This document shows, one piece after another, positions 47,865 to 63,380 of a stretch of DNA of 64,000 bases (position 1 is the stretch's first letter; each line of letters starts with the position of its first letter). Location of the stretch: positions 97-64,096 of the forward strand of contig PCAP01000060.1 in assembly GCA_002731215.1 (NCBI GenBank). Direction: 5' to 3'. The position numbers and the translations under genes were made by a program. A model generated the notes under the pieces. The model was not told where the DNA came from and made no database searches. It saw only the letters and a list, made by a program, of their open reading frames with translations. Source of the stretch: Acidobacteriota bacterium (GTDB taxonomy: Bacteria; Acidobacteriota; UBA890).

Positions 47865-48356
47865 ATGTCTCCAAGTCCTGAACCTGTCATGGTTTGGCAT
47901 ACCGTCGTACCTCAAGCCTGGATCGACTACAACGGCCATCTCACCGAAGGCTTTTACGGCGTGGCCTTCGGCGAAGCCACAGATGAGTTGCTAGTGCATC
48001 TCGGCTTCGGACAGGAGTACCGCGACCGATGTGGAACCTTCTACACCGTTGAGACCCATATCCGTTTCCTTCGGGAAGTCCGTCAGGGATCCACTATCGC
48101 AACGAAATCACGAGTGCTCGGAGTCGACAACAAGCGTCTTCACCTCCACCATGATCTTCTTGTCGATGAAGATCCGGTTCCAGTTGCCACGCAAGAGGTG
48201 ATGCTGTTACACGTGTCGCAGCCCGCAGATGGAGGGCCGCCGCGAACGTCATTAATTCACGAACCCATTCTCGGACAATCCCACACCATCGCTGAGGCCC
48301 ACGCCACAGTCGCCAGTCCCGATCATGTCGGTCGCGGAATCCAGAATCTCCGTTGA
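47865..48356 (+). CDS. hotdog-fold acyl-CoA thioesterase (YbgC/4HBT-like)
   Basis: WIDYNGHLTEGFY active-site region typical of 4HBT thioesterases. Confidence 0.7.
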   Translation: MSPSPEPVMVWHTVVPQAWIDYNGHLTEGFYGVAFGEATDELLVHLGFGQEYRDRCGTFYTVETHIRFLREVRQGSTIATKSRVLGVDNKRLHLHHDLLVDEDPVPVATQEVMLLHVSQPADGGPPRTSLIHEPILGQSHTIAEAHATVASPDHVGRGIQNLR

Positions 48357-49654
48357 ACCAGACACTTTCTGAAAGAACTGCGCCTTCGGCCCTTGTAGGC
48401 GTATGGGCCCTCTTCTTGGGTTTCGCCTTCCTCCAGGTTGGAAATGGTCTCCAACGAATTCTGTTACCGCTCCGCGCCGAGTCAGAAGGTTTCAGCGCAG
48501 GGTCCATGGGTGCGGTCATGGCCTTTCACTTTGCCGGCTATTTGGTAGGCGCTAAGGGAATCCCTCGGGCGCTCAGCTCCGTGGGCCACATCAGGGTGTA
48601 CGCAGCTCTGGCATCCCTAGCGTCGACAGCAGTACTGGTCAATGCTGTTCTTGTTCAACCTCTGACCTGGGGCCTTGTCTACTTCGTGGGCGGTGCTTGC
48701 AACGCAGGCGTGTATGTGGTCCTCGAGAGTTGGCTCAATGACCGTGCTACCAACGAAACCCGGGGGCGGATTCTCGGTCTATACATGATGATCTCGATGG
48801 CCGGAACTGCTGGAGGGCAGTTACTGGTCAATGTTGGACCGCCAGATGGCTTTCAGCTCTTTGTTCTTTCGTCGGTACTAATTTCATTTGCAGTCCTCCC
48901 GGTGACCCTCTCCGCAGCTACAACTGCACCGGCACCCAGCACCGAAACGATGCCGGTAAGGGAGCTATACAAGACCATCCCTTTGGCTGTGGTCGGGATC
49001 GTCCTCTGTTCTTTCGTCCAATCGGCATCGACCAGCATGGCAGCTGTATTTGGGACCACAGCGGGACTCAGTACACAACGCGTAGCCCTCTTCACCTCAG
49101 CTGCAGTGATTGGTGCCGTTTTGTTGCAGATGCCACTCGGCAACCTGTCGGACCGCTATCCACGACGAGCCGTGATTCTCTCAGTGGCTTCCATTGCTCT
49201 TGGCCTTGCAATTGTCGGAGCTATGACCCCAGTAAACAGTCTGCTTCTAGTACCCCTGAATTTGGCTTTCGGGGCATTTGTCTTTCCCATGTACGGACAG
49301 TTCGTAGCTCTTGCAAATGACTGGATTCCTCCAGAAAAGCGGGTTGCAGCAGCCTCGGCCCTGGTTTTGGTATCTAGTGCGGGGGCTGTGGCGGCCCCGA
49401 TTGTGCTCGGCATCGCGATCGAGCAGTTTGGTCCGATCGGGTACTTCATTTCGCTTGCTGTTGTGCTGGCGGTCCTAGTTTCCTACCTCGGGTACCGAAG
49501 TCAGGTTCGCGAGGCAGTCCCGCTAGACAAGCAGTCGACCTTTCAACCGGTACTTGCTCGATCAGGCGAGATCGCCCACTCTGTGGGTCGATGGGTCAGA
49601 CATCCCCTTGCTGAGTGGAATCGCAGTGTCCCCGACGGTGAAAACGACAGCTGA
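48353..49654 (+). CDS. MFS transporter
   Basis: 12 TM helices with MFS loop motifs. 4-nt overlap with the thioesterase gene. Confidence 0.75.
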   Translation: MNQTLSERTAPSALVGVWALFLGFAFLQVGNGLQRILLPLRAESEGFSAGSMGAVMAFHFAGYLVGAKGIPRALSSVGHIRVYAALASLASTAVLVNAVLVQPLTWGLVYFVGGACNAGVYVVLESWLNDRATNETRGRILGLYMMISMAGTAGGQLLVNVGPPDGFQLFVLSSVLISFAVLPVTLSAATTAPAPSTETMPVRELYKTIPLAVVGIVLCSFVQSASTSMAAVFGTTAGLSTQRVALFTSAAVIGAVLLQMPLGNLSDRYPRRAVILSVASIALGLAIVGAMTPVNSLLLVPLNLAFGAFVFPMYGQFVALANDWIPPEKRVAAASALVLVSSAGAVAAPIVLGIAIEQFGPIGYFISLAVVLAVLVSYLGYRSQVREAVPLDKQSTFQPVLARSGEIAHSVGRWVRHPLAEWNRSVPDGENDS

Positions 49655-49780: not shown

Positions 49781-51412
49781 TTAGGGGTACGCACCGTCCA
49801 CCAGTCCAGATTCCTTGTCCATTGTCTTGAGGCCATCGATTCCCAGAAGAAGTTGCACTGCGGTTCGTACTCCGCTGTCAGCTGCGACCGTTCCATGCCG
49901 ATGGAGCATCGACAGCATCGTCCGCCTACGCAACAAGTCTCCAGGTCGAACAATCCGTTCGTGTCGACCCATCACCAGCACCTCTGCCTTGCTCAGGGGG
50001 TCGAGGATGCTCATTGGTTGTGCCAAGTCTTCATCACCCCGAACAAGATCCAAAACTTCGTCCATGCGTGTACCGTGTCGCCGCCAGATGAGAGCAGCAA
50101 CTTCTCGGTCAATGTCCAATCTTGCTGCTCTGTCCAACGCGAGTACACGCTCACCTTTAGAAGCTTCACCGAACCACCGAGCAACTGGCGGCATCGGTTG
50201 CAAACCACAGTCACTGACAGCTTCGACGACCTCAGCGCCCACATTCAGACAATCTGACAGTTTTCCACCTAGGACTGACACGACTCGTCTTCGCTTGTCA
50301 GCCTCTACTGCATGACGGCGTGATAACTCTGTCCAATCACGGCGTTTCGCAGAGCCACCCGGTGGGACAACCAAGGCTCGAACACCGCACCGCTCGGAGA
50401 TTACATCGGCCGTATCTAAGGGGGTTTCAAGGTCAAGCCTCTGGTTCACCTGGTCGAGGAGAAATGCCCTGTCTGCATCGCTGACAGCGACGTCAGGATC
50501 ATCGACAGAAGTGTCCGTTGTTCCGATCACGGAACGGTGCCCCATCGGAAGAATATAAAAAAGCCGTTCGGCATCGTCGAAGAAAGCGAGGATTCTCCCG
50601 GAGTCAGTCACCTGGGGCACAGTTAGGTGAACTCCCTTCGAAAACACCAGACGGTTGGCAGTAGTCGTCCCTGTAAGAGACCCAAGGACTGGCACTTCCG
50701 GTCCGGCTGTATTTACTAGCACCTGTGCGGTTGACTCAAGAACAGAGTCCGTTACCTGGTCGCGGATCATCAACTTCCAGGTTCCTGCGGCGAACTCAGC
50801 TGACTCCAACTTCGCGTAGTTAGCAACGACAGCCCCATGCTTCTCGGCGCCGATAATCATCTCAGACACGAATCGCGAGTCGTTGTCAGCAAGGAGATAG
50901 TCGGAGTACTCGATTCCTCCCCTGATCCCGTTGGTTGCCACTGCAGGCTCCAAGCGGTGGATCGTAGATCTATTTCTATGGCGAGGACGTGCTGTATGAA
51001 AGCGGCCAAGACCCCAATAGGCGTTAGCGCCGAGGGCAGCGAACCATGGAGCAAAGGTGGCGCCCTGTTCAAGCACCGCCATGAAACGCTTTTCAAGCAT
51101 CTGTGTCGGATACGCGGCGGCTAGCCGGTTCCTTGAACGACACAGCCCGGCCACAAGACCAATGTCGTAACTCTCTAGGTATTTGAAGCCCCCCCAAATC
51201 ATGTTGGAGGACTCTTGGCTCGTTCCCGAGGCAAAGTCATCGGCCTCAACAATTCCGACCTTTAGACCGTGCGCAGAAAGAGAGAGTGCTGCGACGGCAC
51301 CGTTGATACCACCGCCGACTACCACCACATCAAATCTGGAGGCCGTCAACCTGTCAAAAGAATCATCTCGCTGCAACGTTTCACCGTGGCGATGGGGCTT
51401 GTCCAAATGCAC
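49781..51412 (-). CDS. glpD: FAD-dependent glycerol-3-phosphate dehydrogenase
   Basis: FAD motif DVVVVGGGINGAVAAL plus GlpD/GlpA family central and C-terminal domains across 543 aa. Confidence 0.8.
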   Translation of the reverse strand: MHLDKPHRHGETLQRDDSFDRLTASRFDVVVVGGGINGAVAALSLSAHGLKVGIVEADDFASGTSQESSNMIWGGFKYLESYDIGLVAGLCRSRNRLAAAYPTQMLEKRFMAVLEQGATFAPWFAALGANAYWGLGRFHTARPRHRNRSTIHRLEPAVATNGIRGGIEYSDYLLADNDSRFVSEMIIGAEKHGAVVANYAKLESAEFAAGTWKLMIRDQVTDSVLESTAQVLVNTAGPEVPVLGSLTGTTTANRLVFSKGVHLTVPQVTDSGRILAFFDDAERLFYILPMGHRSVIGTTDTSVDDPDVAVSDADRAFLLDQVNQRLDLETPLDTADVISERCGVRALVVPPGGSAKRRDWTELSRRHAVEADKRRRVVSVLGGKLSDCLNVGAEVVEAVSDCGLQPMPPVARWFGEASKGERVLALDRAARLDIDREVAALIWRRHGTRMDEVLDLVRGDEDLAQPMSILDPLSKAEVLVMGRHERIVRPGDLLRRRTMLSMLHRHGTVAADSGVRTAVQLLLGIDGLKTMDKESGLVDGAYP

Positions 51413-51622
51413 TCCTCATGTCTAGCGCCCTGCCTGACGTTAAATGCAACTACTACATGGCCTGGGTCAGGCAGCACATATATACGCCTTCGATCAAGGC
51501 TAAACACGCATCCTTTCAGAAGTAGGAATCAGAGGATCTGCCGCATTGACCCTCTCGCCAAATGCACTATCCAGCACCGAATTCGTCAGTCCTGGCGGCA
51601 TGAACTGCTGTAGCGAACCTGA

Positions 51623-51910
51623 TTAGCAGGCTAGAAGTCGATTAAGTGATTTGGAAAAACCACTTGGTGGGTTAGCGACCTCAACGAGTTTGTTCCTTGA
51701 ACGCTCCCCTCCCACAATGCTCACCGATTGTTTAGGCAACTCGAGTGCACCAGCAAGAGCGCCAATCACTGCTCTGTTGGCCTTCCCATCAACAGCAGGA
51801 ACCTGGACTGTCACAAGTAGCACCCTTTGTGGTCCCCAAGTTCCCCCCACGCTTACTCTGGGTGCTCGGGGTTTGACACGAACCGGAAACCTCAAAGATT
51901 CCGAAGCCAT
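51623..51910 (-). CDS. DUF167 (YggU-like) family protein
   Basis: 95 aa. The VDGKANRAVIGALAGALELPKQSVSIVGGERSRNK motif is typical of DUF167/UPF0235. Confidence 0.65.
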   Translation of the reverse strand: MASESLRFPVRVKPRAPRVSVGGTWGPQRVLLVTVQVPAVDGKANRAVIGALAGALELPKQSVSIVGGERSRNKLVEVANPPSGFSKSLNRLLAC

Positions 51911-52717
51911 TCAGGACTGTTCCACTTCCGGTAGCAGCATCGCCAATTGTCGGGACCTGGCGAATAGCGCACCTGTCGAATCCCATAGGGTGCCAGATTC
52001 AATCATCCTCCCGGCGTGGAGGTCCTCAGTAACGAACCTCCCGCATACCCAGCCAGGAGCTGGTCTTTGACGAACATGAACTGTCAACTCGATCGTCGGT
52101 ACCCACCCAACCTGGCCAAGCAGGCCAAAGATCGGTGGTGGGAACGCATCCGCGAATAGGACCGCCGAGAGGGTGTCCGGTTCGCGACCATCGGCAAACC
52201 TGATCCAACCAATTGTCTCTGCCTGTCCAAGAGTTGTAGCGGTCGCATACTCGGGATGGACCCGCATATCCACCCGGTCACGGATCTTAAGTTCGATACC
52301 TTGTTCCAGCCCAGAACGACTAACGCAGTCTTCCGGAGGCGGCATGTCTGGCATCGTCTCGGTCACGACTTGGCCGTGACCAGGAGCACTATCGAGACAA
52401 CCGAAGGCTGCAAGTACCTCAAGTCGCTTAGTTCCCTTTTGGCTGAGACCCGCTCGTGCCGTCGTGACACTTCGTCCGGCGCGGAGGATTGATGCGGTCA
52501 GGTCAGCCCTAGTGCCTGCAGCCCCTGGGCGAAGAAAGTGGGCCGTGACCGAAATCGGATCAGGGTGAGAGCAAAGTTGTCGTATGGGCTGAAGGGTTGA
52601 CGCCACCAGATAGCCACCATTTGGAAAGTCACCGATATTCCAGCAGTCTGTGAGGAGTGCCTTCCAGCGACCGTCAGCCGTTTGCTCAGCAGCGGTCTCG
52701 AGGTCAAATTGGTAAGT
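51911..52717 (-). CDS. acyl-CoA thioesterase II-like (double hotdog)
   Basis: TesB-like two-hotdog architecture. GTG start chosen where it overlaps the ALDH stop (GTGA), because the longer ATG ORF overlaps the ALDH gene by 170 nt. Confidence 0.6.
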   Translation of the reverse strand, partial: TYQFDLETAAEQTADGRWKALLTDCWNIGDFPNGGYLVASTLQPIRQLCSHPDPISVTAHFLRPGAAGTRADLTASILRAGRSVTTARAGLSQKGTKRLEVLAAFGCLDSAPGHGQVVTETMPDMPPPEDCVSRSGLEQGIELKIRDRVDMRVHPEYATATTLGQAETIGWIRFADGREPDTLSAVLFADAFPPPIFGLLGQVGWVPTIELTVHVRQRPAPGWVCGRFVTEDLHAGRMIESGTLWDSTGALFARSRQLAMLLPEVEQS

Positions 52718-54192
52718 CACCGCATGACGAAGGGGTTCGACATCGGTTGGTCTGATGTATTGATCCAAACACTCTTGGTTCGCGTGTACTCGTAGATGGC
52801 ATCCATACCTGACTCGCGTCCATAACCGCTTTGGCCAAATCCACCGAACGGAGCCACAGGCGAGATTGCCCGATAGGTGTTTACCCATACGATCCCAGAG
52901 CGGATTGCAGCAGCTACGCGATGTGCGCGTGCAACATCACGTGTAAATACGCCCGCTCCTAACCCAAATTCAGTGTCATTTGCTAGCGCTAGTGCCTCCT
53001 CCTCGGTTTCAAAGGACAGGACGGACATGACCGGCCCAAATAGCTCTACCTGTGTGCTTGGGATCGCCTGGCTGGCACATCCGAGAACTGTCGGTTGGAA
53101 ATACCAGCCAGAATCCATTCCGTGTGGTCTATGGCCACCGGCGTGGAGGGTGGCCCCCTGCGAGATCGACTCGGCGACGACAGCCTCTATCCGATCGCGT
53201 TGCGCCTCTGTAGCTAGTGGCCCCATCTGTGTGTCCTCATCCAGCGGATCACCGATGCGGACGGCCTCTGCACGCCTAACTACCTCACGGATGAACTCCT
53301 CATGGATCCCTGCTTGCACGAACACCCGTGAGCCCGCAACACAACTCTGACCACTTGCTCCGAAATTGCCGGCGATCGCACCGTTTACTGCCCCTTCAAG
53401 GTCAGCATCATCAAAGATAATGATCGGTGATTTGCCGCCCAACTCCAATGAGACGTGGGCGAAGTTGGCAGCCGTATTGGCTACTACCTTACGTGCCGCC
53501 TCTATGCCACCAGTGAACGCCACACGGCTTACCAGTGGGTGTGCCGTCAGCGCTCGACCGCACGGCTCGCCAAAACCTGTGATTAGGTTGAACACCCCTG
53601 GTGGAAACCCGACCTCGTCAACCAGTTTGGCGAACTCGAGTACAGGTGCAGGTGCCTCCTCCGAGGACTTGATGACGACCGTGTTGCCAGCGGCGAGCGC
53701 TGGTGCCGTCTTTGTGGCAGTGAGGAGCATCTCTGCGTTCCACGGCACAATCCCAGCTACGACCCCGATCGGTTCACGGGTCGTAAAAACGTGGAGGCCA
53801 GGCTTATCTATCGGCAAGGTATTACCCTGAATCTTGTCTGCCAGACCTGCGTAGTAACGGTAGTACTCTGCTACATAGGCAGACTGTCCGCGAGTCTCTA
53901 CGGCCAGCTTCCCACTATCAGTGGTCTCGATGGAGCCGAGGTGTTCAGACCGTTCAGCCATCAAATCAGCTAATGCGAATAACAGTTTTCCGCGACCGGT
54001 CGGGGTCATTTCTGCCCACTCTCCCTCATAGAGAGCACGCCTAGCTGCCCGTACCGACCTATCGACGTCTTCCTCTGCGGCAGCGGGGGCAGTCGCCCAG
54101 GCCACACCTGTCGCCGGGTTCGCGGATTCAAAGCGACTGCCGTCTGCTGCCTCACAGAACTCACCGTCGATATACATCTGGTAGTAGATCAT
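52717..54192 (-). CDS. NAD(P)-dependent aldehyde dehydrogenase
   Basis: ALDH motifs ELGGKSP (Glu active site) and GQSCVAGSR (catalytic Cys) across 491 aa. Confidence 0.9.
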   Translation of the reverse strand: MIYYQMYIDGEFCEAADGSRFESANPATGVAWATAPAAAEEDVDRSVRAARRALYEGEWAEMTPTGRGKLLFALADLMAERSEHLGSIETTDSGKLAVETRGQSAYVAEYYRYYAGLADKIQGNTLPIDKPGLHVFTTREPIGVVAGIVPWNAEMLLTATKTAPALAAGNTVVIKSSEEAPAPVLEFAKLVDEVGFPPGVFNLITGFGEPCGRALTAHPLVSRVAFTGGIEAARKVVANTAANFAHVSLELGGKSPIIIFDDADLEGAVNGAIAGNFGASGQSCVAGSRVFVQAGIHEEFIREVVRRAEAVRIGDPLDEDTQMGPLATEAQRDRIEAVVAESISQGATLHAGGHRPHGMDSGWYFQPTVLGCASQAIPSTQVELFGPVMSVLSFETEEEALALANDTEFGLGAGVFTRDVARAHRVAAAIRSGIVWVNTYRAISPVAPFGGFGQSGYGRESGMDAIYEYTRTKSVWINTSDQPMSNPFVMR

Positions 54193-54971
54193 TGTGTCGC
54201 CCCCGTTTCTAGAAAGTTGATTAGCGCTGTGACAAACAACTCAGGTGCCTCGATTGGGGGCAGGTGGTGCAGCTTGTTCAAGATGCGGGCCTGTCCATTC
54301 TGGACAGCTCCTGCCAATGCAGTGGACATCTCTACCGTTGAACCGAGGTCAAACTCTCCTGTCATAGCGAGGACGGGCTCTTGGATTCGTTGCGCCCCTT
54401 CTGGCATCAGCGGGTCGCCTTCAATGAACAGGTTATAAGCCTTCAAATATGCGGATAGGTCAGTCGACTGAAGTCTTTCCCGTATGGCGAGGACACGCTC
54501 TGGATGCTCGGCTTGCCATGCGGGTTTGAACCAGCGGTCAACAGCCATCTTGGCTACCGCGTTCATTCCGTCTGTCTCTGTGATAGCCAGACGCTCCTTG
54601 AGTTCCTCAATCTGATTGGCACTCCGATCAAACACAGTGTTCAACAACACCAATTTTCCAAAACGACCTTGATTGCGTATAGAGGTGGCTAGGGCCACCA
54701 TCCCCCCCAGGGATATGCCGACAACCTCTGGTTGATCCAAGTCTTGTGATTGAACTACGTGAAGGAGTTCCGACACGAAGTCTTCTATGCTCCGATCACC
54801 CGGCAAGTCTGGAGTACGACCGTGGCCCATCATGTCATATCTCACGATTCTCCTGTGGCCCGCCAGGCTGCTGGCCACAAGGTCCCACATGGTGTGATCC
54901 AGTCCAACACCGTGGATTAAGAGAAGAGGTGCCCCAGTACCCTCTACCCGGATAAAAGTCTCGTGCTTCAT
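54189..54971 (-). CDS. alpha/beta hydrolase (enol-lactonase-like)
   Basis: HGVG oxyanion motif (LLLIHGVGLD) and nucleophile elbow GISLGG. Confidence 0.75.
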   Translation of the reverse strand: MKHETFIRVEGTGAPLLLIHGVGLDHTMWDLVASSLAGHRRIVRYDMMGHGRTPDLPGDRSIEDFVSELLHVVQSQDLDQPEVVGISLGGMVALATSIRNQGRFGKLVLLNTVFDRSANQIEELKERLAITETDGMNAVAKMAVDRWFKPAWQAEHPERVLAIRERLQSTDLSAYLKAYNLFIEGDPLMPEGAQRIQEPVLAMTGEFDLGSTVEMSTALAGAVQNGQARILNKLHHLPPIEAPELFVTALINFLETGATQ

Positions 54972-55555
54972 TCAGGGTTGAGGCCCATTTCCTCCATATC
55001 GGAGTAACGGTTGCCTATCCGATGGTGGGGTCTCCCACCTATGGATGCACCGATGGCAATGACGATCTCATCAGGACCGGGCGCGTCGGCCACGTGCATC
55101 TCAAGGGTGAGATAGTGGGATCTCCAGCCTGGGTCAACCTTGTGCATCATGGGAATCGAAATGAGCGCTCCTGGCCCACCCCTCGTGTTCGTGAACGAAA
55201 GGTATGAAGATCCACGCACTGCATCCCTGAACACGTTCCCAAATCTGAGCGTGTGGATTATCGCCGAGCCATGCTCGACCTCGCCTGAAGTTCCGACCAT
55301 CGCAGCCTTGCCATATGCCTCGACGGCTTCACCGCCTCCTGTTGCCTCGATAAGCCTAGATACGAGCAATTCGCCCATTTCCGGTGCCACCTCAAGAATC
55401 TCGGGAGACAGATCTTCCACGAAACCAGCTCCAGCCCATGGGTTGGCAATGACAGCGCCGACACCAAATAACAACAGGGGTGGTTCGGCCACACGTCCAC
55501 CCTCGATCAGGACCTCCTCGGAATGTAGGACCAACTTGCGCACTTGGAGAGCCAT
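54968..55555 (-). CDS. 'amino acid synthesis' family protein (PF06684-like), function unknown
   Basis: 195 aa. N-terminal VRKLVLHSEEVLIEGGRVAEPPLLLFGVGAVIANPWAG closely resembles the PF06684 family N-terminus. Confidence 0.55.
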   Translation of the reverse strand: MALQVRKLVLHSEEVLIEGGRVAEPPLLLFGVGAVIANPWAGAGFVEDLSPEILEVAPEMGELLVSRLIEATGGGEAVEAYGKAAMVGTSGEVEHGSAIIHTLRFGNVFRDAVRGSSYLSFTNTRGGPGALISIPMMHKVDPGWRSHYLTLEMHVADAPGPDEIVIAIGASIGGRPHHRIGNRYSDMEEMGLNPE

Positions 55556-56721
55556 CAGACCATTTCACTCCGGAGTTGCTCCTCTGGGAAGAGAGGCATC
55601 ACCTGCTCGGTAAACATGGTGATGCTGTCCATCACAGCCTCGTGCGGCACCCCGGGGAAACTGGACCACAACAGGAGGGTTTTCAGGTTCAACTTGTCTC
55701 TCATCTCTTGGATCTGTTCAGCGACGTACTCGGGGGAGCCAAACAGCAGGTTGCGTGGGTGAAGCCACTCGTAGGAAAGGTGGTCCAACTTGCCACCGCC
55801 GTGAGGCAAAACCTCTCCAGGAAACATGTGGTTTCCAAGACCCCTGAAGTGGCAGACCCATTCGAGGTAAGTCAGGATCCCCTGGCCGCCAAGCCTTTCC
55901 GCCTCTTCCATTGTCTCGGTAACAAAGAGGTCGCGGACCAGCGCCACTCCATCGCCCATCTCAAGTTCTTCGCCTCGGGCCTCTGAAGCGGCATCGCGGT
56001 ACATCTCAAAGCGCGGCACCATTGCATCAGTGGGAGGGATCCAGAACATGCCCTGGAGGTCGTTCTTTGCAGCGAACTGGATTGAGGGAGGAGTGTCAAT
56101 TACCTGCCAGAGCGGTGGATGCGGCTTCTGTAATGGCCGCGGCACTACAGCTAGGGCCGTGATCTCACCAGTCTCGACGTCGGTATTTGCTCCCGTTGCT
56201 GGACTCATCGAATGCTCGAAGGTAAGCCCCGGTTGGGGAAATGTGAAGTGCTCGCCTTCGAAGGAGAAGAACTCCTCTGTCCAGCATCGCCGCATAACCT
56301 CAAGGGTCTCGGCGAATAGGGAACGGTTGAGTTCCGAGTTCCTTACGTCGGAGGCGGGGTTCATGTTGACGGCCTCACGGGGATAAATACCCCGTCCGAC
56401 ACCGACCTCCAAACGACCAGCACTCATGTGGTCAAGCATTGCAAGATCCTCGGCAAGCCGGATCGGATGGTGAAAAGTAATGATGCTGGCAGCCTGCCCG
56501 ACTCTGATCTGTTCTGTGCGTGCAGCCAGATCAGCTGTCATGAGGATCGGGTTTGGGCAGACCTCCAACCCCTCGTGGCCAAAGTGGTGCTCAGTTGTCC
56601 AAATTGAATGCCAGCCGTTTCGATCACAGTAGCTGGCTATCTCACGACCCTCCTCAACCACTTCGTGAAATGGCTTGGTGAGTCCGATGTTGTTTTGGTT
56701 TAGAAAATAACCGAAGTGCAT
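55555..56721 (-). CDS. LLM-class flavin-dependent oxidoreductase (luciferase-like)
   Basis: TIM-barrel LLM motifs (IWTTEHHF, GRLEVGVGRG). The start was set at Met of MHFGYFL. Confidence 0.8.
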   Translation of the reverse strand: MHFGYFLNQNNIGLTKPFHEVVEEGREIASYCDRNGWHSIWTTEHHFGHEGLEVCPNPILMTADLAARTEQIRVGQAASIITFHHPIRLAEDLAMLDHMSAGRLEVGVGRGIYPREAVNMNPASDVRNSELNRSLFAETLEVMRRCWTEEFFSFEGEHFTFPQPGLTFEHSMSPATGANTDVETGEITALAVVPRPLQKPHPPLWQVIDTPPSIQFAAKNDLQGMFWIPPTDAMVPRFEMYRDAASEARGEELEMGDGVALVRDLFVTETMEEAERLGGQGILTYLEWVCHFRGLGNHMFPGEVLPHGGGKLDHLSYEWLHPRNLLFGSPEYVAEQIQEMRDKLNLKTLLLWSSFPGVPHEAVMDSITMFTEQVMPLFPEEQLRSEMV

Positions 56722-56866
56722 GTCCGTAATCTCTGTCAGGCGACTGGTCCCTGGGCACACACCGTTTTTCCTCGCTGCCTGCCCGACTCGAGGTTCGCAT
56801 GATGCTAGGACGCCGCCAACGTTTAGGTCAACGTCGCACACAAGCCTGGTTAGTTTGAAATCTGAT

Positions 56867-58036
56867 TTACCCGATCACCGGCAGTTCCCGTTCTGCGCGC
56901 CATGAGAGCAAATGTGCGCCGTCCTCTCGGATCACCACGTTCTCCTCATGAAGCATCAACTTGCCTGGTTCCCAGGTAAAGCCAGGTTCCAAAGTGAGCA
57001 CCATGCCTTCAACAATCTCGGTGGCATCTCCAGCAGTATTTGAAGGCCATTCGGTCACCTGCATTCCTAGCCCATGTCCGAGTCGACCGACCGAGTTGCC
57101 AAGGGAGCCACCATCAGTGAGAACTTCAGCCGTGGCAGCCCAAACATCGCTAGTGGTTGCACCAGGACGCATCGATGCGAGCCCGGCTTCTGTTGCCTCC
57201 CAGACTGTCCGGTAGGCCTGCGCTGCACCCGGATCAGGCTCTCCAAAGGAATAGTTGCGATCAAAGTCACTGAAATAGCCGGCGTACGTTGAACCTGTGT
57301 CGAACATGAGTAGGTCTCCGCGTTCGATTACTCGGTCGGTCGGCTGCTTGATCACGTCCGAGAAGCCCGGTCCGCTTGCCCCAACCAGGTAGGGCACATC
57401 GTCAGCGCCTCTTCGCAGAAGTTCGATCTTGAAGGCCTTGAATGCGTCTCGTTCGCTCATCCCAATACCCACGAGCTCTGGAAGTACAGCGAATGACTCG
57501 GAGACAATCCTGCAGATGTGGGTGATATTGGCTATCTCCGCCTCAGACTTGACCATACGCAAGGAGCGCACAATGTTCGTTGCATCAACGAGAGTGGCAT
57601 CCCCTAAGTGCCTCTGAAGCATTTCATAGTCGCTTAGAGGCATCCGCAGGTGCGTCTCCGCGGCCATTGGAAGGCCGATCCGACCGGCTGGACCGGCTAG
57701 ATCAAGGAGTGTGGAGGCGAGCAAGGTGACACCTTCGTCCTCTGGTTGCGGAGCTGGCCATGTGCGGATGTCATCAACCCATGTGCCTGACATCGCGCTC
57801 TCCCCTATTCCAGGAATGACAGCGATGGGCTTTCCCTCCGTGGGGATCACTGTGAACCAGGGACGCGTCGGGCTCTGCCAAAACGGCGTATGGAAGCCAG
57901 TGAAGTATCTGACCTCGGGTTCGGTGCATACGAGAAGGCAGGCGACTCCAGCCTGTGCCATTTTCGCCTGGGCCGCCTGGGTTCGACGTCTAAATTCAGA
58001 CTCGGGGAACCCGCGAGATGGAGTCAGTTCATTCAA
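56867..58036 (-). CDS. M24 family hydrolase, creatinase/prolidase/ectoine-hydrolase (DoeA/EutD)-like
   Basis: Creatinase N-terminal domain (FRRRTQAAQAKMAQAGVACLLV) plus pita-bread catalytic domain with metal ligands (FDTGSTYAGYFSD...LEPG). Probable TTG start overlapping the upstream stop (TTGA). Confidence 0.7.
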   Translation of the reverse strand: MNELTPSRGFPESEFRRRTQAAQAKMAQAGVACLLVCTEPEVRYFTGFHTPFWQSPTRPWFTVIPTEGKPIAVIPGIGESAMSGTWVDDIRTWPAPQPEDEGVTLLASTLLDLAGPAGRIGLPMAAETHLRMPLSDYEMLQRHLGDATLVDATNIVRSLRMVKSEAEIANITHICRIVSESFAVLPELVGIGMSERDAFKAFKIELLRRGADDVPYLVGASGPGFSDVIKQPTDRVIERGDLLMFDTGSTYAGYFSDFDRNYSFGEPDPGAAQAYRTVWEATEAGLASMRPGATTSDVWAATAEVLTDGGSLGNSVGRLGHGLGMQVTEWPSNTAGDATEIVEGMVLTLEPGFTWEPGKLMLHEENVVIREDGAHLLSWRAERELPVIG

Positions 58037-58812
58037 CTGGCACCCACATTTTGCTCGAGTGTGAAGAGACGTCCTAAGTCTTGAACCTCGTCGTCTACTC
58101 CAGCCAGTCTCAACATGTGCCATATGAGCGCGAGGTTGCTCGATACGACAGGCTTGCCCATGCGGTGTTCAATATCTGTAACCACTCCGAAGGTTCTGAG
58201 ACTGGTACAGGAGACGAATACCGCCTCGCATACGTCAGCCCCACCCACACGGACTGCGGCGTCGGCTACAGCCTGCTCTGAAATCCTTGCGACCAGGTGG
58301 TCATCTGGTTCAAGAAAAGAAGCTACGGCTACCACCTCGATACCGACAGACTCGAAGTGCCCGACTATGCGGCGTGTCACATCAGCCGTGTAGGGAGTGA
58401 CCACACCGATTCTTTGAACCCCAAGAGCGGTAAAGGCAGCAACAGCTGCTTTGATGGGATTGGTAGATGGCACCCCAGGGTGGGCCGAGTCGAATGCTGC
58501 CTCAACGGCAGGCTCACCTATGAGGGTGGCTGCCGACGTGCAACCGTAACCGATGGCATCCAGTTTGAGTTCAATGGGAAGCAGGGACGCCGCCAGAGGC
58601 AACCTCTCCTCCATAGCTGTCAAGGTTTCAGGGGTGACTGTGGCATCGTTGGCTATTCGCGCGATGTAGTGCGTTACCTCTTTTATCCGAATTTCTCGAA
58701 GTTCAGCCTCAAGTGTGTGATCGGACTCCAGGACGACAACTCCCAGTTTTGCGCGCCTGCCAAGACCCTCATCCGTTGTGAACTCGAGTTGGACTAGGTC
58801 AAGTTCGCTCAC
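58033..58812 (-). CDS. Asp/Glu/hydantoin racemase superfamily protein (maleate isomerase / arylmalonate decarboxylase / EutA-like)
   Basis: Two catalytic Cys contexts, GYGCTSA and VFVSCTSLRT, match the maleate isomerase motifs. Confidence 0.7.
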   Translation of the reverse strand: MSELDLVQLEFTTDEGLGRRAKLGVVVLESDHTLEAELREIRIKEVTHYIARIANDATVTPETLTAMEERLPLAASLLPIELKLDAIGYGCTSAATLIGEPAVEAAFDSAHPGVPSTNPIKAAVAAFTALGVQRIGVVTPYTADVTRRIVGHFESVGIEVVAVASFLEPDDHLVARISEQAVADAAVRVGGADVCEAVFVSCTSLRTFGVVTDIEHRMGKPVVSSNLALIWHMLRLAGVDDEVQDLGRLFTLEQNVGAS

Positions 58813-59681
58813 ATGTCCACCGTGTAGAGCTCCTGTTGGTTGAAAAATGATGCCCCCGTGGGTACTTCTGGATACTCCATCTCAACGTCAGTGCATCTCA
58901 ACCGGTTGGTGGCTTCGCCCCGCAGTACCTCACCTTCGTAGATAGATGGTACGTGACAGACCTGTAGTGGCTTGCAGTCCTCGGCCTTGTACCCACAGAT
59001 GAACACAGTGCGAGGCTGATCTGAAAGATTTGGCATCGATCCATGCAGGGTGCGCCCATGCATGAGAGCCGCTGACCCGGATGATCCTAGGATTGGGACC
59101 CTTAGAGCACTTGCTTTTTCGAGCACGGAGTTTGAAACAGTGCCTGTGAACACCCCGTCATGCCAGTGGTCATACAGGGGTCCTCTGTGGCTGCCAGGTA
59201 CGACTTCAAGCGGGCCGTTTTCCTTAGTTATCTCATCGATGAAGTAGAGCACGGTGATCATGTCATCGTTGGTGTGGGGCTCGAAAAGGAAGTCCTGGTG
59301 CCACTTCACTTCAGTACTTGTGCCAGGCAACTTGGAATTCACCTTGGAGTGACCGAACGCCACGTTCGGTCCGATCAGTTGGGCCACCGCGTCTACAGCG
59401 AGACACGAACGCATAACGTCAAGGTAGGCGTCTGACAGTTCAATGGGGGAAGCAACGCGTCGTATGGCAGGTGTCTCTGCGGTGTGACCGGGCTCCAGAT
59501 CAAAACGAGGTCTTCCATCCTGCATGTGGCCATATGGTTCGGTGTGGGAACGGCTTTCGTCGATCCATCCCTCAAACTCAACTGCCAAGGTCGCAATCTT
59601 CTCAACGGGCACCGCATTTTCGAGCAGCAGGTAGCCGTTACTCCAAAATGAGTCGATCTGTGCCTGATCCAAAACCTGCAT
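58809..59681 (-). CDS. phytanoyl-CoA dioxygenase (PhyH) family Fe(II)/2-oxoglutarate oxygenase
   Basis: H-x-D...H facial triad context (KWHQDFLF...PGSHRG). The start was set at MQVLDQAQIDSFWSNGYLLLEN; the ORF can extend to 59843. Confidence 0.7.
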   Translation of the reverse strand: MQVLDQAQIDSFWSNGYLLLENAVPVEKIATLAVEFEGWIDESRSHTEPYGHMQDGRPRFDLEPGHTAETPAIRRVASPIELSDAYLDVMRSCLAVDAVAQLIGPNVAFGHSKVNSKLPGTSTEVKWHQDFLFEPHTNDDMITVLYFIDEITKENGPLEVVPGSHRGPLYDHWHDGVFTGTVSNSVLEKASALRVPILGSSGSAALMHGRTLHGSMPNLSDQPRTVFICGYKAEDCKPLQVCHVPSIYEGEVLRGEATNRLRCTDVEMEYPEVPTGASFFNQQELYTVDM

Positions 59682-59900
59682 CTCGAGACTCCAAACACTT
59701 GAATTTGGTAGCCGGCTCAGCGCTACACTACCGCTTCCTTTTTGCTGCAGCCACGTGCCGTTTGCGTCTGAAGGGCGTCTTGGATATTTCAAATAGTGCT
59801 GGGTGAATCCACGAGCCCTGCCGAAATACGTACAAGCCATCACTGATTCCTGTCCGTTTTCTGCGTTGCGACTGGATCAGACATTGGTCAGACTGTTCAA

Positions 59901-60815
59901 ATGCGTATCGCAGCTGTCCAGGCAACTCCAACCTTTCTCAACCGCGAAGGCAGCATTGAAATTGTCCTTAATCGGATCTCCGAGGCAGCAGCTGGCGGTG
60001 CTGACTTGGTGGCCTTTCCTGAAGTATTTGTACCCGGGTATCCAATCTGGCTAGACCGCACCAACGCTGCCGCTTGGGAGGATGCGAACCAGCAGGCTGC
60101 ATATTCTTTGTACCTGGAGCAATCCGTTGAGGTGTACGGACCCGAATTCGCCACAGTTGTCGAGGCTGTAAGGCAAGCTGGGTTATTCGCCTATGTGGGC
60201 GTGGTTGAGCGTGCTGCCTCTATCGGCTCTGCCTACTGCTCGCTGGTTGCAATCGACCCCAGTGAGGGGATAGTTGGAATCCACCGAAAGTTGAAGCCGA
60301 CCTTTGCTGAGCGGCTCGTATGGGCTGACGGCGATGGTGCTGGTCTGGTAGCCCACGAGCACTGTGGGGTTCGCCTCACTGGTCTCAACTGCTGGGAGAA
60401 CTGGATGCCGTTGGCGAGAGCCGCCATGTACGAATCAGGCTCGCAAGTGCATGTAGCTGCATGGCCTGGTTCTGTGGGCCTAACCGAAGACATAACGCGT
60501 TTCGTCGCTCGTGAAGGGCGGCTGTTCGTGGTCAGCGTGGGGGCTATCTACCGATCCGAACACGTACCCGATGACTTTCCTCTGCGTAACGCTCTCCCTG
60601 AAGGAGAGCGTTACCACAATGGAGGTACCTGTGTCGCAGGACCAGATGGTGAGTGGGTTATCGAACCAGTTCGAAACGAAGAAGGCATCGTATGGGCTGA
60701 TCTAGATATCGGCGAGGTTGCTAAACAGCGTCAAAACTTCGACCCTGCTGGCCATTACTCTCGCCCCGATGTGCTCCACTTAGAGGTGAACCGTTCCCGT
60801 CTGACATCTCCTTAA
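59901..60815 (+). CDS. nitrilase / C-N hydrolase family protein
   Basis: E-K-C triad with the nitrilase signature LNCWENWMP (catalytic Cys). Confidence 0.85.
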   Translation: MRIAAVQATPTFLNREGSIEIVLNRISEAAAGGADLVAFPEVFVPGYPIWLDRTNAAAWEDANQQAAYSLYLEQSVEVYGPEFATVVEAVRQAGLFAYVGVVERAASIGSAYCSLVAIDPSEGIVGIHRKLKPTFAERLVWADGDGAGLVAHEHCGVRLTGLNCWENWMPLARAAMYESGSQVHVAAWPGSVGLTEDITRFVAREGRLFVVSVGAIYRSEHVPDDFPLRNALPEGERYHNGGTCVAGPDGEWVIEPVRNEEGIVWADLDIGEVAKQRQNFDPAGHYSRPDVLHLEVNRSRLTSP

Positions 60816-60824
60816 CGCCCTGAA

Positions 60825-61547
60825 ATGCTTCATCGGATCACAGATCACCCGGTTTTAACATTCGACTGCTACGGAACCCTCATCGACTGGGAAGGGGGTA
60901 TTTGGGAGGCCCTTCAACCTCTTCTACGTACCAGACCTGATCAAGTCTTCGACCGTGCTCATGTGATCGCCACCTTCAACCACTTCGAAGGACTTCAACA
61001 GGCTGCTACGCCGACACTTGTTTACCCCAAGGTCCTTGAACAGGTTCACCATTCACTTGCAGCCCATCTTGGTTTAGAGTCTTCTGATCCGCTTGACCAG
61101 GCGTTCGGCGCCTCGGTACCGCAGTGGCCTGCGTTTTCGGATTCAAGCGCCGCTCTTCTGTTTCTGTCGGACCACTTTGATCTTGTAATCCTGTCAAATG
61201 TGGACCGCGCTGGATTCGCTGCATCTAACGAACTGTTGGGAGTCGAGTTTGACGCCATCTATACGGCAGAGGAAATCGGCTCCTACAAACCCGAACAAGC
61301 CAACTTCAGGTATCTGATTGAACACTTAGCTTGCGATCTCGGCCACGAAAAGAAAGAGATCCTCCACATAGCTGAGAGCATTCGACACGACCATGTGCCG
61401 GCGCGACAGATTGGCCTTCACAACGTCTGGATAGATCGCAACCGACTCTCAGATACTTTGAAATCCGGTCTGCCAGCCTATGAGAACCTCTTCTTTTCTA
61501 TGGCCGAGTTGGTCACTGCAGTCACAAGAGAACTGGTCGGTGCCTAG
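60825..61547 (+). CDS. HAD-superfamily hydrolase, haloacid dehalogenase type II-like
   Basis: N-terminal FDCYGTLID (D-x-Y-G-T nucleophile motif), SN motif (ILSNVD), and C-terminal K...D motifs. Confidence 0.75.
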   Translation: MLHRITDHPVLTFDCYGTLIDWEGGIWEALQPLLRTRPDQVFDRAHVIATFNHFEGLQQAATPTLVYPKVLEQVHHSLAAHLGLESSDPLDQAFGASVPQWPAFSDSSAALLFLSDHFDLVILSNVDRAGFAASNELLGVEFDAIYTAEEIGSYKPEQANFRYLIEHLACDLGHEKKEILHIAESIRHDHVPARQIGLHNVWIDRNRLSDTLKSGLPAYENLFFSMAELVTAVTRELVGA

Positions 61548-62077
61548 TAGAGGGCCATGAGTTCGGCTACGACAATCAGAACCACGACGGTCAGGTTTAT
61601 CAGGCGGAATAGGCCGAACGGAGATTTGGCGAAGTTGCGACCAATTTGGCTATTGGCCATCTCATCGTCCATGTCTTTGGCGCACGCTCCGATGTCTTGG
61701 ATGCACCCGTCGGTCCAGATCGCCGCCCAGAGTGACCCCAGAACCGCCCAAGCCGCTAAAGCAAGAGTGGCCCCATCTGCCTTAAGGCCATCTGCACCGA
61801 ACACGATCACCGCGACAATTCCAGAATGGGCGATGACAAACGGGAGGATTATTGCCCTCAGGTCAGCGGCCCGATTGGCAATTTGATTTGTCAATAGATC
61901 AGCGCGCATTAGTTCAGTCTCCAATTTCTGATACCAACCGGTCCCTCCGGCTCCTGTGAAGACTAGTGCTACAACCAATACTCTCGGTAGCCCAAATAGA
62001 ACTTGGTGATACTCAGATTTCCAACCCGTACCACCGTTCTCCGAACTGACACGCGAGCGTGTTTGATCTAAAGTCAC
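61544..62077 (-). CDS. hypothetical membrane protein (3-4 TM)
   Basis: 177-aa ORF with hydrophobic segments. 4-nt overlap with the convergent HAD gene end. No family recognised. Confidence 0.45.
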   Translation of the reverse strand: MTLDQTRSRVSSENGGTGWKSEYHQVLFGLPRVLVVALVFTGAGGTGWYQKLETELMRADLLTNQIANRAADLRAIILPFVIAHSGIVAVIVFGADGLKADGATLALAAWAVLGSLWAAIWTDGCIQDIGACAKDMDDEMANSQIGRNFAKSPFGLFRLINLTVVVLIVVAELMALY

Positions 62078-62111
62078 TGCCTTCCAGCAAACGTGAAAAT
62101 GGGGGACGTGC

Positions 62112-62750
62112 GTGATGAAGCTATGGAATCGGATTTTTCAGATGCAGGCAGGCCGGACGGCCGAAGCGTCGGCGGCGCTGGTCGATGTCCACCAGGCCAT
62201 CAACTCAATGTCGGACTATGGGTACTCATTGTGGGAGACAATCGTGGGACCGACTAACCAGTTCGCGGCCTCCGCTCTCTGCTCTAATGTCGAAGAATTC
62301 TTTTCTGGAGCACCCATGCATGACAACGTTGACGGTGCTGCCTTGGGATCCAAGGCAGCAGATGTGAACACTCTGGTGGACGGCCCCGCTGATGACTCGC
62401 TATGGAACATCGTGCACGTGCTCGGCGACTGGTCGTCGGTACCGAATATCCTTTCCGACGTCGTCAGCAAGGTTCCAATGGACCAAATGGCTCCGACCGT
62501 GGAGGCCACGGTGGAGTTCGCTGAGTACATGCACGGGCTTGCTGGCACGCCGGTTACTGTCTGCACGAGCTTCTGGGGAACCGGCCCGTCTGTTCGCATG
62601 TACTGGGGATACGAGTCCATGGGCGACTGGGATGAGCGGTCCACCCGTGGAATGGGCGACCCGGGATTCCACCAGCGCAACGCGGCACTAGCCGCCCTGC
62701 CGGGCGTGGAGATGGCAGCCAGGAGTGGAGTTTTCCGTCGCCTAGTCTGA
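62112..62750 (+). CDS. hypothetical protein
   Basis: 212-aa ORF with coding-like composition. No family recognised by eye. Confidence 0.45.
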   Translation: MMKLWNRIFQMQAGRTAEASAALVDVHQAINSMSDYGYSLWETIVGPTNQFAASALCSNVEEFFSGAPMHDNVDGAALGSKAADVNTLVDGPADDSLWNIVHVLGDWSSVPNILSDVVSKVPMDQMAPTVEATVEFAEYMHGLAGTPVTVCTSFWGTGPSVRMYWGYESMGDWDERSTRGMGDPGFHQRNAALAALPGVEMAARSGVFRRLV

Positions 62751-62780: not shown

Positions 62781-63380
62781 CTAACTGACGGCTTCAGTTG
62801 AGCCGAAATCCACTGGCCATTCTGTCTTCTTATCAACTTTTACCTTGCTGAGGTTTGCTCCGGCAAGGTCCGCTCCAGCAAGGTTCGCTCCGGCAAGGTC
62901 CGCTCCGAAGAGGTCTGCTCCTTTGAGGTTCGCCCCTTCGAGGTCCGCGTAAAAGAACTTCGTTCCTCTGAGTTGCGCTCTCTCGAACTGTGCCCATTTG
63001 AGGAGCCCATAGCCAAACACCGCCAAGCAAAGATTTGCTTCGTTTAGGTTCGCCGAAACAGACTCTGCCAAGAATAGGTTTGCACCGTTGAGGTTCGCTC
63101 CTGCAAGGTTCGCTCCTGCAAGGTTCACACCTTCAAGATTTGCCGCTCTGAGATTCGCACCCTTGAGGATCGCCCCTTGAAGGGTTGCACCTTTGAGATT
63201 CGCGTCTTTAAGGTTGGCCCCTTCGAGTATCAGGCCTTCAAGAAGTGCCCTGTGGAGGTTTGCACCGTTGAGGTTCGCTCCTGCAAGGTTCGCTCCTGCA
63301 AGGTTCACACCTTCAAGATTTGCCGCTCTGAGATTCGCTCCCGGCCTGATCTTGTAGCCGTTGACTTCCACGGCCTCCAC
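62781..63380 (-). CDS. pentapeptide repeat protein (Qnr/MfpA-like size)
   Basis: 199 aa, almost entirely A(N/D)LxG/ANLxx pentapeptide repeats. It contains an internal 28-aa duplicated block. Confidence 0.85.
   Translation of the reverse strand: MEAVEVNGYKIRPGANLRAANLEGVNLAGANLAGANLNGANLHRALLEGLILEGANLKDANLKGATLQGAILKGANLRAANLEGVNLAGANLAGANLNGANLFLAESVSANLNEANLCLAVFGYGLLKWAQFERAQLRGTKFFYADLEGANLKGADLFGADLAGANLAGADLAGANLSKVKVDKKTEWPVDFGSTEAVS
63076..63338. repeat. exact 83-bp direct repeat (copies 63076-63158 and 63256-63338) inside the first pentapeptide-repeat gene
   Basis: Both copies read identically: aggtttgcaccgttgaggttcgctcctgcaaggttcgctcctgcaaggttcacaccttcaagatttgccgctctgagattcgc. Shorter ~24-bp blocks (ccctagtcaggttcgccc type) also recur at 63536-63640 in the second gene. 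Confidence 0.8.

Follow-up and report, generated by a model that had tools for sequence, protein, structure and literature searches.

Nine minus-strand genes form a string in the 64,000-nucleotide (nt) stretch of contig PCAP01000060.1 analyzed here (the window). The first three genes encode a PhyH-family dioxygenase, a EutA-like protein and an M24 metallohydrolase (together, the trio). The next four encode a luciferase-like flavin-dependent monooxygenase (LLM), a PF06684 protein, an alpha/beta hydrolase and an aldehyde dehydrogenase (ALDH) and are referred to as the core, followed by genes for a TesB-like thioesterase and a small DUF167 protein. We describe the organization of this locus, the relationship of the core to bacterial trigonelline clusters and a short leader element, located directly upstream of the core, that is a candidate riboswitch aptamer. 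All nine open reading frames (ORFs) listed in the initial annotation were present, and their families were confirmed by Pfam (Table 1); none of the proteins of the string reached an NCBIfam curated cut-off.

Organization of the locus

Every junction in the string had been described as an overlap of 0–4 nt, and this was borne out for seven of the eight, which are indeed tightly coupled. The PhyH and EutA-like genes share GTGA and the EutA-like and M24 genes share TTGA, while the LLM and PF06684 genes have one base in common. ATGA overlaps are found at both ends of the hydrolase gene (PF06684/hydrolase and hydrolase/ALDH), GTGA joins the ALDH and thioesterase genes and the thioesterase/DUF167 junction measures 0 nt. 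The TTG start of the M24 gene is supported by three other M24 proteins, to which homology begins at residue 4–5. The eighth junction departs from this pattern, as the M24 stop at 56867 and the LLM start codon at 56721 are separated by a gap of 145 nt. ATG 56721 was assigned as the LLM start because the Pfam domain begins there, all homologues begin with M[HRK]FGYF and several gene callers agree; an alternative start at GTG 56841, which is unlikely, would still leave a gap of 25 nt. At the other end of the string, the PhyH gene had been drawn as far as 59843. Its likeliest start is ATG 59681, giving a protein of the same length as its homologues.

Table 1 Features of the nine-gene string and its surroundings in the window.
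Feature	Position	Strand	Details
PhyH-family Fe(II)/2-oxoglutarate dioxygenase	58809..59681	(-)	290 aa; Pfam PF05721, E 7.5e-27; first gene of the trio
EutA-like protein, Asp/Glu racemase / maleate isomerase / arylmalonate decarboxylase superfamily	58033..58812	(-)	Pfam Amdase, E 6e-25
M24 metallohydrolase	56867..58036	(-)	Creatinase_N + Peptidase_M24 (Pfam); TTG start
Sigma-70-like promoter	56802..56831	(-)	TTGACC-18 nt-TAGCAT; consensus scan; in the M24-to-LLM gap
Leader element, candidate riboswitch aptamer	56750..56795	(-)	~45 nt; CCUCG-AGUCGGGCAGGCAG-CGAGG-AAAAAC-GGUGUGUGCCC
Putative expression platform	56722..56749	(-)	GCCUGAC-A-GAG (56731-56741), complementary to the 5' arm of the element
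LLM, 'type a'	55555..56721	(-)	388 aa; Pfam PF00296; proposed ring-opening oxygenase
PF06684 (DUF1185, 'amino acid synthesis') protein, TgnF orthologue	54968..55555	(-)	Pfam, E 7e-66
Alpha/beta hydrolase, TgnD-like	54189..54971	(-)	Pfam
NAD(P)-dependent ALDH, TgnC-type	52717..54192	(-)	Pfam, E 6e-162
TesB-like (4HBT_3) thioesterase	51911..52720	(-)	Pfam; GTG start; accessory gene occurring with either cassette
DUF167 (YggU family) small protein	51623..51910	(-)	Pfam, E 1e-19
Nitrilase (CN_hydrolase)	59901..60815	(+)	Pfam; divergent from the string; conserved neighbor of the trio

The single long gap proved to be the most informative feature of the string and, if the two-cassette reading given below is correct, an operon boundary drawn here from the tight overlaps alone would be wrong. 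A consensus scan of positions 51300–60100 returned only one promoter-like site on either strand, and this site lies in the gap, immediately upstream of the leader element. In every lineage that carries the element, a -35/-10 pair precedes it. The distance from the -10 hexamer (TAGCAT or TAGGAT) to the start of the element is 7–8 nt in Acidimicrobiia, and low-GC marine contigs (TTGACA-17-TATATT) show the same spacing, which places the element at the 5' end of the mRNA. Because promoter and leader are conserved across lineages, the last six genes are expected to have their own start, which does not agree with the proposal that all nine form a single operon. No terminator was found after the M24 gene or elsewhere inside the string. 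The G+C content is uniform (54–58%), with no compositional sign of a recent insertion of the core.

Relationship of the core to trigonelline clusters

Trigonelline (N-methylnicotinate) is an abundant nitrogen-containing metabolite released by phytoplankton and plants. The initial annotation had seen no obvious known pathway in the string, but LLM, PF06684, hydrolase and ALDH are homologous to members of the trigonelline (tgn/trc) cluster found on S. meliloti pSymA and in Acinetobacter, with a collinear gene content. To compare loci, the PF06684 protein was used as an anchor, both through exact-match contigs and in a scan of 185,579 species genomes; the query was a 10-sequence PF06684 alignment, as a broader 33-sequence alignment was too diverse for locus finding. 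The PF06684-hydrolase-...-ALDH arrangement is kept in Pseudomonas, Rhizobium, roseobacters, Achromobacter and Pelagibacteraceae, with PF06684 and ALDH proteins 52–67% identical. The PF06684 protein of the window shares 61% identity with the pSymA cluster protein and 56–67% with those of tgn-like loci outside the Acidimicrobiia (Pseudomonas, Rhizobium, roseobacters, Pelagibacter and other taxa). The ALDH, in which the catalytic Cys and Glu motifs are present, is 58% identical over 492 residues to the ALDH within the pSymA cluster, compared to 36% toward the succinate-semialdehyde dehydrogenase (SSADH) of that cluster, and 52–66% identical to the ALDHs of other tgn-like loci. The hydrolase occupies the conserved position and retains GxSxG, Asp and His, with only 28% identity to its pSymA counterpart. 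The LLM is 31.5% identical to the pSymA LLM over 222 residues and 25–31% identical to TgnB-type enzymes. Among the canonical clusters themselves, the hydrolases are only 34–37% identical whereas the LLMs are 62–69% identical, and the oxygenase is therefore the real outlier of the core. Orthologues of this type-a LLM (51–57%) are found in Pelagibacteraceae and some alphaproteobacteria, always as LLM-PF06684-hydrolase-ALDH.

The chemistry of the canonical pathway is said, in work by Perchat and colleagues in 2018, to begin with opening of the ring by TgnAB to a lactol; TgnC reportedly oxidizes the lactol and TgnD hydrolyzes the product to formate, methylamine, CO2 and succinate semialdehyde. The pSymA cluster, ordered GntR-PF06684-hydrolase-flavin reductase-LLM-ALDH-NIPSNAP-ABC transporter-SSADH, lies between nodL/noeAB and nifB/fixABCX, the position to which the classical trc trigonelline genes reportedly map (Boivin et al., 1990/91). 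Growth on trigonelline requires pSymA (PMC4207669; bioRxiv 10.1101/296483). A plasmid of A. venetianus has a cluster of the same architecture as that of pSymA, and P. fulva has flavin reductase-LLM-PF06684-hydrolase-ALDH together with a GntR regulator and an NCS1 permease. TgnF of the A. baylyi ADP1 trigonelline cluster is described as a DUF1185 protein that stimulates the SSADH of the same tgn cluster (PMC7913881). The genes for the demethylase of stachydrine (proline betaine), stc3 and stc4 (comparison locus L216, 1–2736), also belong to the pSymA nod-nif region and are ~17 kb distant from the trigonelline genes; the region is a plant-betaine catabolic island.

As judged from sequence, the core is probably a variant of tgnB/F/D/C with a replaced oxygenase and no cluster-encoded reductase. 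By analogy with the tgn pathway, the LLM would use O2 and reduced flavin, provided by a reductase encoded elsewhere, to open the pyridinium ring. The ALDH would then oxidize the resulting lactol or aldehyde, and the hydrolase would release formate, methylamine and CO2 to leave succinate semialdehyde, with the PF06684 protein aiding a dehydrogenase step. As in tgnABCDEF of A. baylyi ADP1 and trc of pSymA, an LLM, a DUF1185/PF06684 protein, an alpha/beta hydrolase and an ALDH are encoded together. In contrast to both, the core has the type-a oxygenase, is without flavin reductase, SSADH, transporter or GntR regulator at the locus, and has an RNA leader that is proposed to take over control from such a protein. 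The gene orders also differ (LLM-PF06684-hydrolase-ALDH versus PF06684-hydrolase-reductase-LLM-ALDH on pSymA). No homologue of the pSymA substrate-binding protein (SBP) or GntR regulator was detected by tblastn in the 64-kb window. An MFS gene is located 2 kb away. At 47865–49654 (+), a 4HBT_2 thioesterase gene overlaps an MFS transporter gene; in the marine relative represented by L011/L015, this pair is kept (66% and 80%) and its spacing from the core is similar. The MFS gene could encode the transporter that is absent from the locus.

Other assignments of the core were also considered. An F420-dependent LLM is disfavored by the 51–54% identical orthologues in Pelagibacteraceae, a clade not known to possess F420. 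The Rut pathway (RutA LLM, RutC of the YjgF fold and RutD) resembles the core in combining an N-heterocycle-opening LLM, a small helper of chorismate-mutase/YjgF-like fold and an alpha/beta hydrolase. This analogy was rejected, as the RutD match reached 67.9 bits against a cut-off of 238.5 and the orthology of PF06684 and ALDH points to tgn; the matches that NCBIfam listed for the nine proteins plus the nitrilase did not include RutA, RutB, RutC, RutE or RutF. The homarine operon homABCDER (PMC13236597) catabolizes an isomeric N-methylpyridinium carboxylate and includes peptidase-like and ALDH-like proteins. It was set apart on the basis of protein descriptions, as nothing here, the trio proteins included, corresponds to HomA (~230 aa, FAD-binding) or HomB (~570 aa). 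Sarcosine-oxidase-like genes are co-induced with the homarine operon (PMC13236597). The window has its own sarcosine-oxidase-like genes at 42644–47658 (+), of the heterotetrameric type, which encode a DAO protein resembling the beta subunit, an alpha subunit containing GCV_T domains, and a gamma subunit. In L157, such genes lie divergently beside a tgn operon that carries the candidate riboswitch.

The leader element and its candidate ligand

The leader element was discovered by extracting and aligning the regions upstream of all type-a LLM genes. The block is near-invariant among Acidimicrobiia (consensus CCUCGAGUCGGGCAGGCAGCGAGGAWAAAAGGUGUGUGCCC), although the LLM proteins encoded behind it are only 68–89% identical. 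In the alphaproteobacterial locus L054, the loops are kept and both arms of the first stem are changed. A pattern containing the loops only matched once in the window, compared to 0 matches in 100 shuffles, and it matched once in each of these loci and in no other genome locus. Scanning metagenomes with the loop pattern returned 120 stretches; the full element is present in ~40 distinct sequences, always on the sense strand, 7–8 nt behind a -10 box and 0–63 nt before an ORF for an LLM, a tgnD-type hydrolase or MttB. No Rfam 15 family matches the element: a 15-kb scan returned nothing, and otherwise only chance hits were obtained (snoU61, 15.7 bits versus 55; Ms_AS-5, 13.3 versus 46). A blastn search of the leader against plasmids gave no match, and the literature searched contained no trigonelline riboswitch and no matching orphan motif.

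Two helices are predicted in the element. In stem A (CCUCG/CGAGG, five pairs), two positions covary (CG28/GC7 and AU26/GC9, none unpaired), with three pair types at the two positions, and the observed covariation score was reached by 0 of 500 shuffles. When no stem filter was applied, all four inner pairs were present in 23 of 24 distinct metagenome hits with the conserved tail, compared to 2 of 61 background pattern hits. Stem B, formed by 5'-GGCAGGCA-3' and 5'-UGUGUGCC-3' with one G.G, is predicted to cross stem A, and an H-type pseudoknot is plausible but weakly supported. Compensatory changes in stem B occur only in tandem second copies of the element in alphaproteobacteria, where A-U is replaced by G-C and G.G by C-G. 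These variant copies (GCUCA-AGUG(C/G)GCGCGCAG-UGAGC-CNAAUC-GGUGUGCGC), with their changes in the second helix, directly follow the first copy in alphaproteobacterial type-a operons (L054, 4930–4975; L105, L119/L131 and L142). A different conserved leader, GCGAUACAUAACUCGUCG..variable loop..ACGAAAGUGGGAUCGGUCG, is located on the same type-a operon in Pelagibacteraceae (SAR11) (L075, ~8730–8800; L060, L074, L079, L080, L082, L084 and L090). It has no Rfam family match and may be a second regulatory RNA for the type-a operon.

The element is similar to small pseudoknot riboswitches such as preQ1-II, SAM-II, guanidine-III and fluoride in being compact (~45 nt), with a predicted H-type pseudoknot at the mRNA 5' end, invariant loops, covarying stems, an A-rich linker and, as predicted here, translational control through an anti-sequence at the ribosome-binding site or start codon. 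It differs from known riboswitch classes in having no sequence or covariance-model match in Rfam 15 and in its gene associations (tgn operons and MttB methyltransferases), which fit none of them. Unlike the known small pseudoknot riboswitches, it would turn expression on in response to a compound that the cell catabolizes.

Three classes of genes are associated with the element. These include the type-a LLM-PF06684-hydrolase-ALDH operons; canonical tgnD-tgnA-tgnB-tgnC operons from metagenomes, in which a flavin reductase is present, the LLM is 62–69% identical to that of pSymA and the ALDH is 61–66% identical to that of the window; and, also from metagenomes, MttB-superfamily (PF06253) methyltransferases of ~527 aa. 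Loci of the last class, all non-Pyl, are L096, L107, L117, L122, L129, L136, L170, L173, L176 and L183. In L096, the gene after MttB encodes a binding protein 69% identical to the SBP of the pSymA tgn cluster. Trigonelline is the common denominator of the three gene classes and therefore the leading ligand candidate, and the leader probably binds it. The loop and tail nucleotides are identical before type-a and canonical tgn operons, which argues that the window core shares its substrate with the canonical operons even though its oxygenase differs. The leader-linked MttB proteins are candidate trigonelline demethylases.

A putative expression platform separates the element from the LLM start codon. 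In the window, its anti-sequence is located 10 nt before AUG 56721, just upstream of a weak Shine-Dalgarno sequence, and the minimum free energy fold pairs CUC..GUCGGGC with GCCUGAC.GAG. The anti-sequence overlaps the Shine-Dalgarno sequence in L013, L016 and L017 (GCCCGACUUGAGAGGA). In canonical low-GC marine operons, it covers codons 2–5 (AUG-NNU-GAC-UUG-AG), which explains why 'xDL' is conserved there in N-termini that vary in other respects. The long-range helix with the anti-sequence and stem A are mutually exclusive, and no intrinsic terminator was found after the element. In the proposed mechanism, the 5' arm of the element would pair with the anti-sequence at the ribosome-binding region in the ligand-free state and block translation. 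The ligand, likeliest trigonelline, would stabilize stem A and the pseudoknot, freeing the initiation region and switching translation on. We infer the ON direction, which is the logical one for a catabolic operon.

A broader proposal is that the leader founds a new class of trigonelline-sensing riboswitch, the first for a pyridinium or quaternary-amine osmolyte, that switches on the canonical tgn, variant-LLM and MttB routes alike. We put this forward tentatively, at slightly under even odds, from the comparison of leaders and downstream genes. Under this proposal, the routes would be used by abundant freshwater and marine bacteria, with the variant LLM in Acidimicrobiia and some alphaproteobacteria, and the MttB-family methyltransferase may demethylate trigonelline to nicotinate.

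A probable two-cassette locus and rival explanations

The idea that the nine genes constitute one functional unit was not supported when co-occurrence of the gene set was examined in other genomes, in which trio and core occur separately. A marine relative at 87% identity (L011, L015) retains PhyH-EutA-M24-gap-LLM-PF06684-hydrolase-ALDH-thioesterase-DUF167, and the nine-gene arrangement is confined to one Acidimicrobiia sub-lineage; the source of the window was placed as an uncultured member of the Acidimicrobiales. At 76–79% identity, Acidimicrobiia loci L007–L010 have only LLM-PF06684-hydrolase-ALDH-thioesterase, located behind an unrelated gene. Other Acidimicrobiia (L013, L016, L017 and L028) have LLM-PF06684-hydrolase followed by an ALDH or Ldh_2 gene and adjoining an OpuAC-type transporter. 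The core is thus present without the trio in L007–L010, L013/L014, L016, L017 and L028. In one of these lineages (L013/L014, 11394–16730), the core ALDH is replaced by an Ldh_2-family dehydrogenase, and the operon abuts an M19 dipeptidase gene and the OpuAC-type (betaine-type) ABC transporter.

The trio, in turn, was examined in three other contexts (L217, L218 and L219) containing EutA-like homologues at 59–63% identity. In all three, the EutA-like gene lies beside PhyH (57–70%) and M24 (63–69%) genes, and no LLM, PF06684, hydrolase or ALDH gene is found near the trio. The M24 protein of L218 (3979–6123, from a 3.7-Mb genome) was called as 714 aa, about twice the usual length, and is either a fusion or the result of a mis-called start. 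In L219, the trio is followed by a nitrilase gene (75%, directly after M24), a thioesterase gene (67%) and, farther off, a DUF167 gene (44%). The nitrilase has an 82% identical orthologue in L011, and DUF167 adjoins the thioesterase in L011/L015 (61%) and is absent from L007–L010. The sole long gap of the string coincides with the boundary between the cassettes, and the window looks like an L219-type neighborhood with a four-gene cassette placed between the M24 and thioesterase genes. A caveat to this composite view is that a thioesterase orthologue (58%) also follows the core in L007–L010. In the same loci, which lack the trio next to the core, a PhyH orthologue (51%) is found 9.5 kb upstream of the core (~490–4000) as the first gene of a PhyH-amidase-aminotransferase set; PhyH therefore partners different amidohydrolases in different genomes.

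PhyH contains HxD (H128-Q-D) and the distal His, and its 57–70% orthologues in L217–L219 are always encoded beside the EutA-like and M24 genes. Both Cys motifs of the catalytic type (GCTSA and SCTS) are present in the EutA-like protein, whose PDB relatives are arylmalonate decarboxylase (AMDase) and maleate isomerase. Only one Cys is found in AMDase; retention of both favors an isomerase or racemase, and an AMDase-like decarboxylase is disfavored. All five metal-ligand motifs are present in the M24 protein, and its best PDB relative is the dipeptidase PepE (4ege), with DoeA and creatinase much weaker. Creatinase is not known to have these five motifs, and a creatinase assignment, which would have tied the M24 protein to the nearby sarcosine-oxidase genes, is unlikely.

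A resemblance of the trio to ectoine and hydroxyectoine catabolism had also been suggested, with placement of the M24 and racemase-like proteins as the means of checking it. The resemblance stood in part. The DoeA/EutD, EutA and EctD-like hydroxylase enzymes of that pathway belong to the same three superfamilies as the trio; EctD, EutA and DoeA are among the best or near-best NCBIfam matches of the trio, and EutA is the best match of the racemase-like protein. However, all scores are far below the cut-offs (EutA, 208.7 versus 318; DoeA, 69.9 versus 613 and 65.6 versus 575; EctD, 54.8 versus 336.5), and the M24 protein is nearer to prolidase-type (Xaa-Pro) dipeptidases than to DoeA. The genes examined included no DoeB/EutE deacetylase, EutB dehydratase, EutC cyclodeaminase or Ueh/Eht transporter, and membership in the Doe/Eut pathway was rejected. 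The neighbors of the trio elsewhere encode RidA, DAO, amine oxidase and aminotransferases. Our best guess, a weak one, is that its substrate may be an ectoine-like cyclic or N-acylated amino compound.

We consider it probable, at roughly 60%, that the string combines two cassettes which have come to lie side by side in this lineage specifically, and that the core is a variant trigonelline operon preceded by a candidate substrate-sensing ON riboswitch. The earlier impression that the locus is catabolic in flavor is retained. Little has been established in the field about which aquatic bacteria consume trigonelline and how they sense it. If the two-cassette reading is correct, freshwater and marine Acidimicrobiia, and probably SAR11, have a variant trigonelline pathway with a replaced oxygenase, encoded by core genes that are currently annotated only as 'amino acid synthesis family protein' and 'LLM oxidoreductase'. 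In that case, the leader would represent a new and very small riboswitch class with a directly testable ligand hypothesis, and its sequence could be used to flag genes that respond to trigonelline in metagenomic and metatranscriptomic data. An MttB-family trigonelline demethylase would add a new substrate to its superfamily.

Four other explanations were weighed against this reading. One of them is compatible with it, namely that the trio genes form a complete cassette of their own, directed at an ectoine-like, N-acyl or cyclic amino compound and biochemically unlinked to the core. Hydroxylation, ring or amide hydrolysis and isomerization would be followed by feeding of the product to nearby-encoded aminotransferases. 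The trio is conserved as a unit at 57–70% in three unrelated contexts, its neighbors there (RidA, DAO, amine oxidase and aminotransferases) suit such a role, the metal ligands of M24 and both Cys of the EutA-like protein are all kept, and EutA is by far the best family match of the latter. Given that every family score is below its cut-off, that M24 is nearer to Xaa-Pro dipeptidases than to DoeA, that neither the thioesterase nor the nitrilase takes part in ectoine catabolism as it is known and that distant EutA-like/M24 pairs recur beside tgn-like clusters, we regard this explanation as a real if unlikely possibility. Also unlikely, and somewhat more so, is a core with tgn-like chemistry but another substrate, either a different N-heterocycle or a different pyridinium compound (such as a further N-methylated pyridine carboxylate or a nicotinate derivative), with the leader sensing that compound or a shared intermediate. 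The oxygenase is the one non-orthologous component (25–31% versus 62–69% among canonical clusters), no reductase is encoded in the cluster, and type-a clusters of SAR11 adjoin 2-oxoglutarate oxygenases and other transporters, all of which would suit a different substrate. The identity of leader loop and tail before both operon types argues for the same ligand, however, and PF06684 and ALDH are 58–66% identical across them; MttB with a tgn-type SBP has the same element.

The 45-nt block could alternatively serve as the DNA operator of a repressor or an activator, or be an RNA element that binds no ligand, such as a small RNA target or an RNase site. Inverted repeats are present within the block, but its stems vary by compensatory change and its asymmetric loops are invariant, the opposite of what is expected of a palindrome contacted by protein. 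Its orientation is strictly sense, it spans Actinomycetota and Proteobacteria without a shared adjacent regulator gene, the downstream anti-sequences constrain codons 2–5 ('xDL') and the GntR-bearing clusters lack it, which together make this explanation improbable. Least probable, and very much so in our estimation, is the original proposal of a single nine-gene operon for one undescribed ectoine- or hydroxyectoine-related pathway extended by oxidative steps. The overlaps at seven of eight junctions, the lack of any terminator found inside the string, the eight-gene order from PhyH to thioesterase kept in the 87%-identity marine relative and the EctD, EutA and DoeA matches of the trio are in its favor. 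These are outweighed by the conserved promoter and leader in the gap, the separation of trio and core in most genomes examined, the homology of the core to the tgn cluster and the ectoine-family scores far under the cut-offs, with DoeB/EutE, EutB and EutC not found among the genes examined.

Several points count against the two-cassette reading with a trigonelline-responsive core. As no terminator follows the M24 gene, read-through from the trio into the core is possible. Distant EutA-like/M24 pairs adjoin tgn-like clusters in SAR11 (L080 and L090) and in Ruegeria (L087), a recurrence that may hint at a functional link between the cassettes. With 25–31% identity to TgnB-type enzymes, the LLM may have another substrate; the hydrolase is likewise distant from that of pSymA (28%), and tblastn with pSymA proteins found neither flavin reductase nor SSADH in the 64-kb window. 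The link to A. baylyi was made through the cluster architecture of pSymA and Acinetobacter, two citing papers and the reported pathway chemistry instead of through the Tgn sequences themselves. With regard to the leader, model R1 matches type-a loci only among 82 sources and gives the window element 65.6 bits (E 7e-18), a score that is partly by construction, as the R1 alignment includes this element. The variation in stem A perhaps reflects two or three evolutionary events. The covariation of stem B comes from one lineage, that with the tandem copies, and L007 and L017 each have one unpaired position. No clear anti-sequence was found in the MttB-class leaders and in some alphaproteobacterial ones. 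The position of the block at about +1, right after the -10 box, is that of a classic operator.

Beyond the nitrilase/HAD pair, the window encodes a pentapeptide-repeat protein and two ORFs without a Pfam match, one apparently membrane-bound (62781–63380 (-) and 61544–62750), which are conserved in same-species contigs. The source population of the locus occurs in lake and Tara metagenomes.

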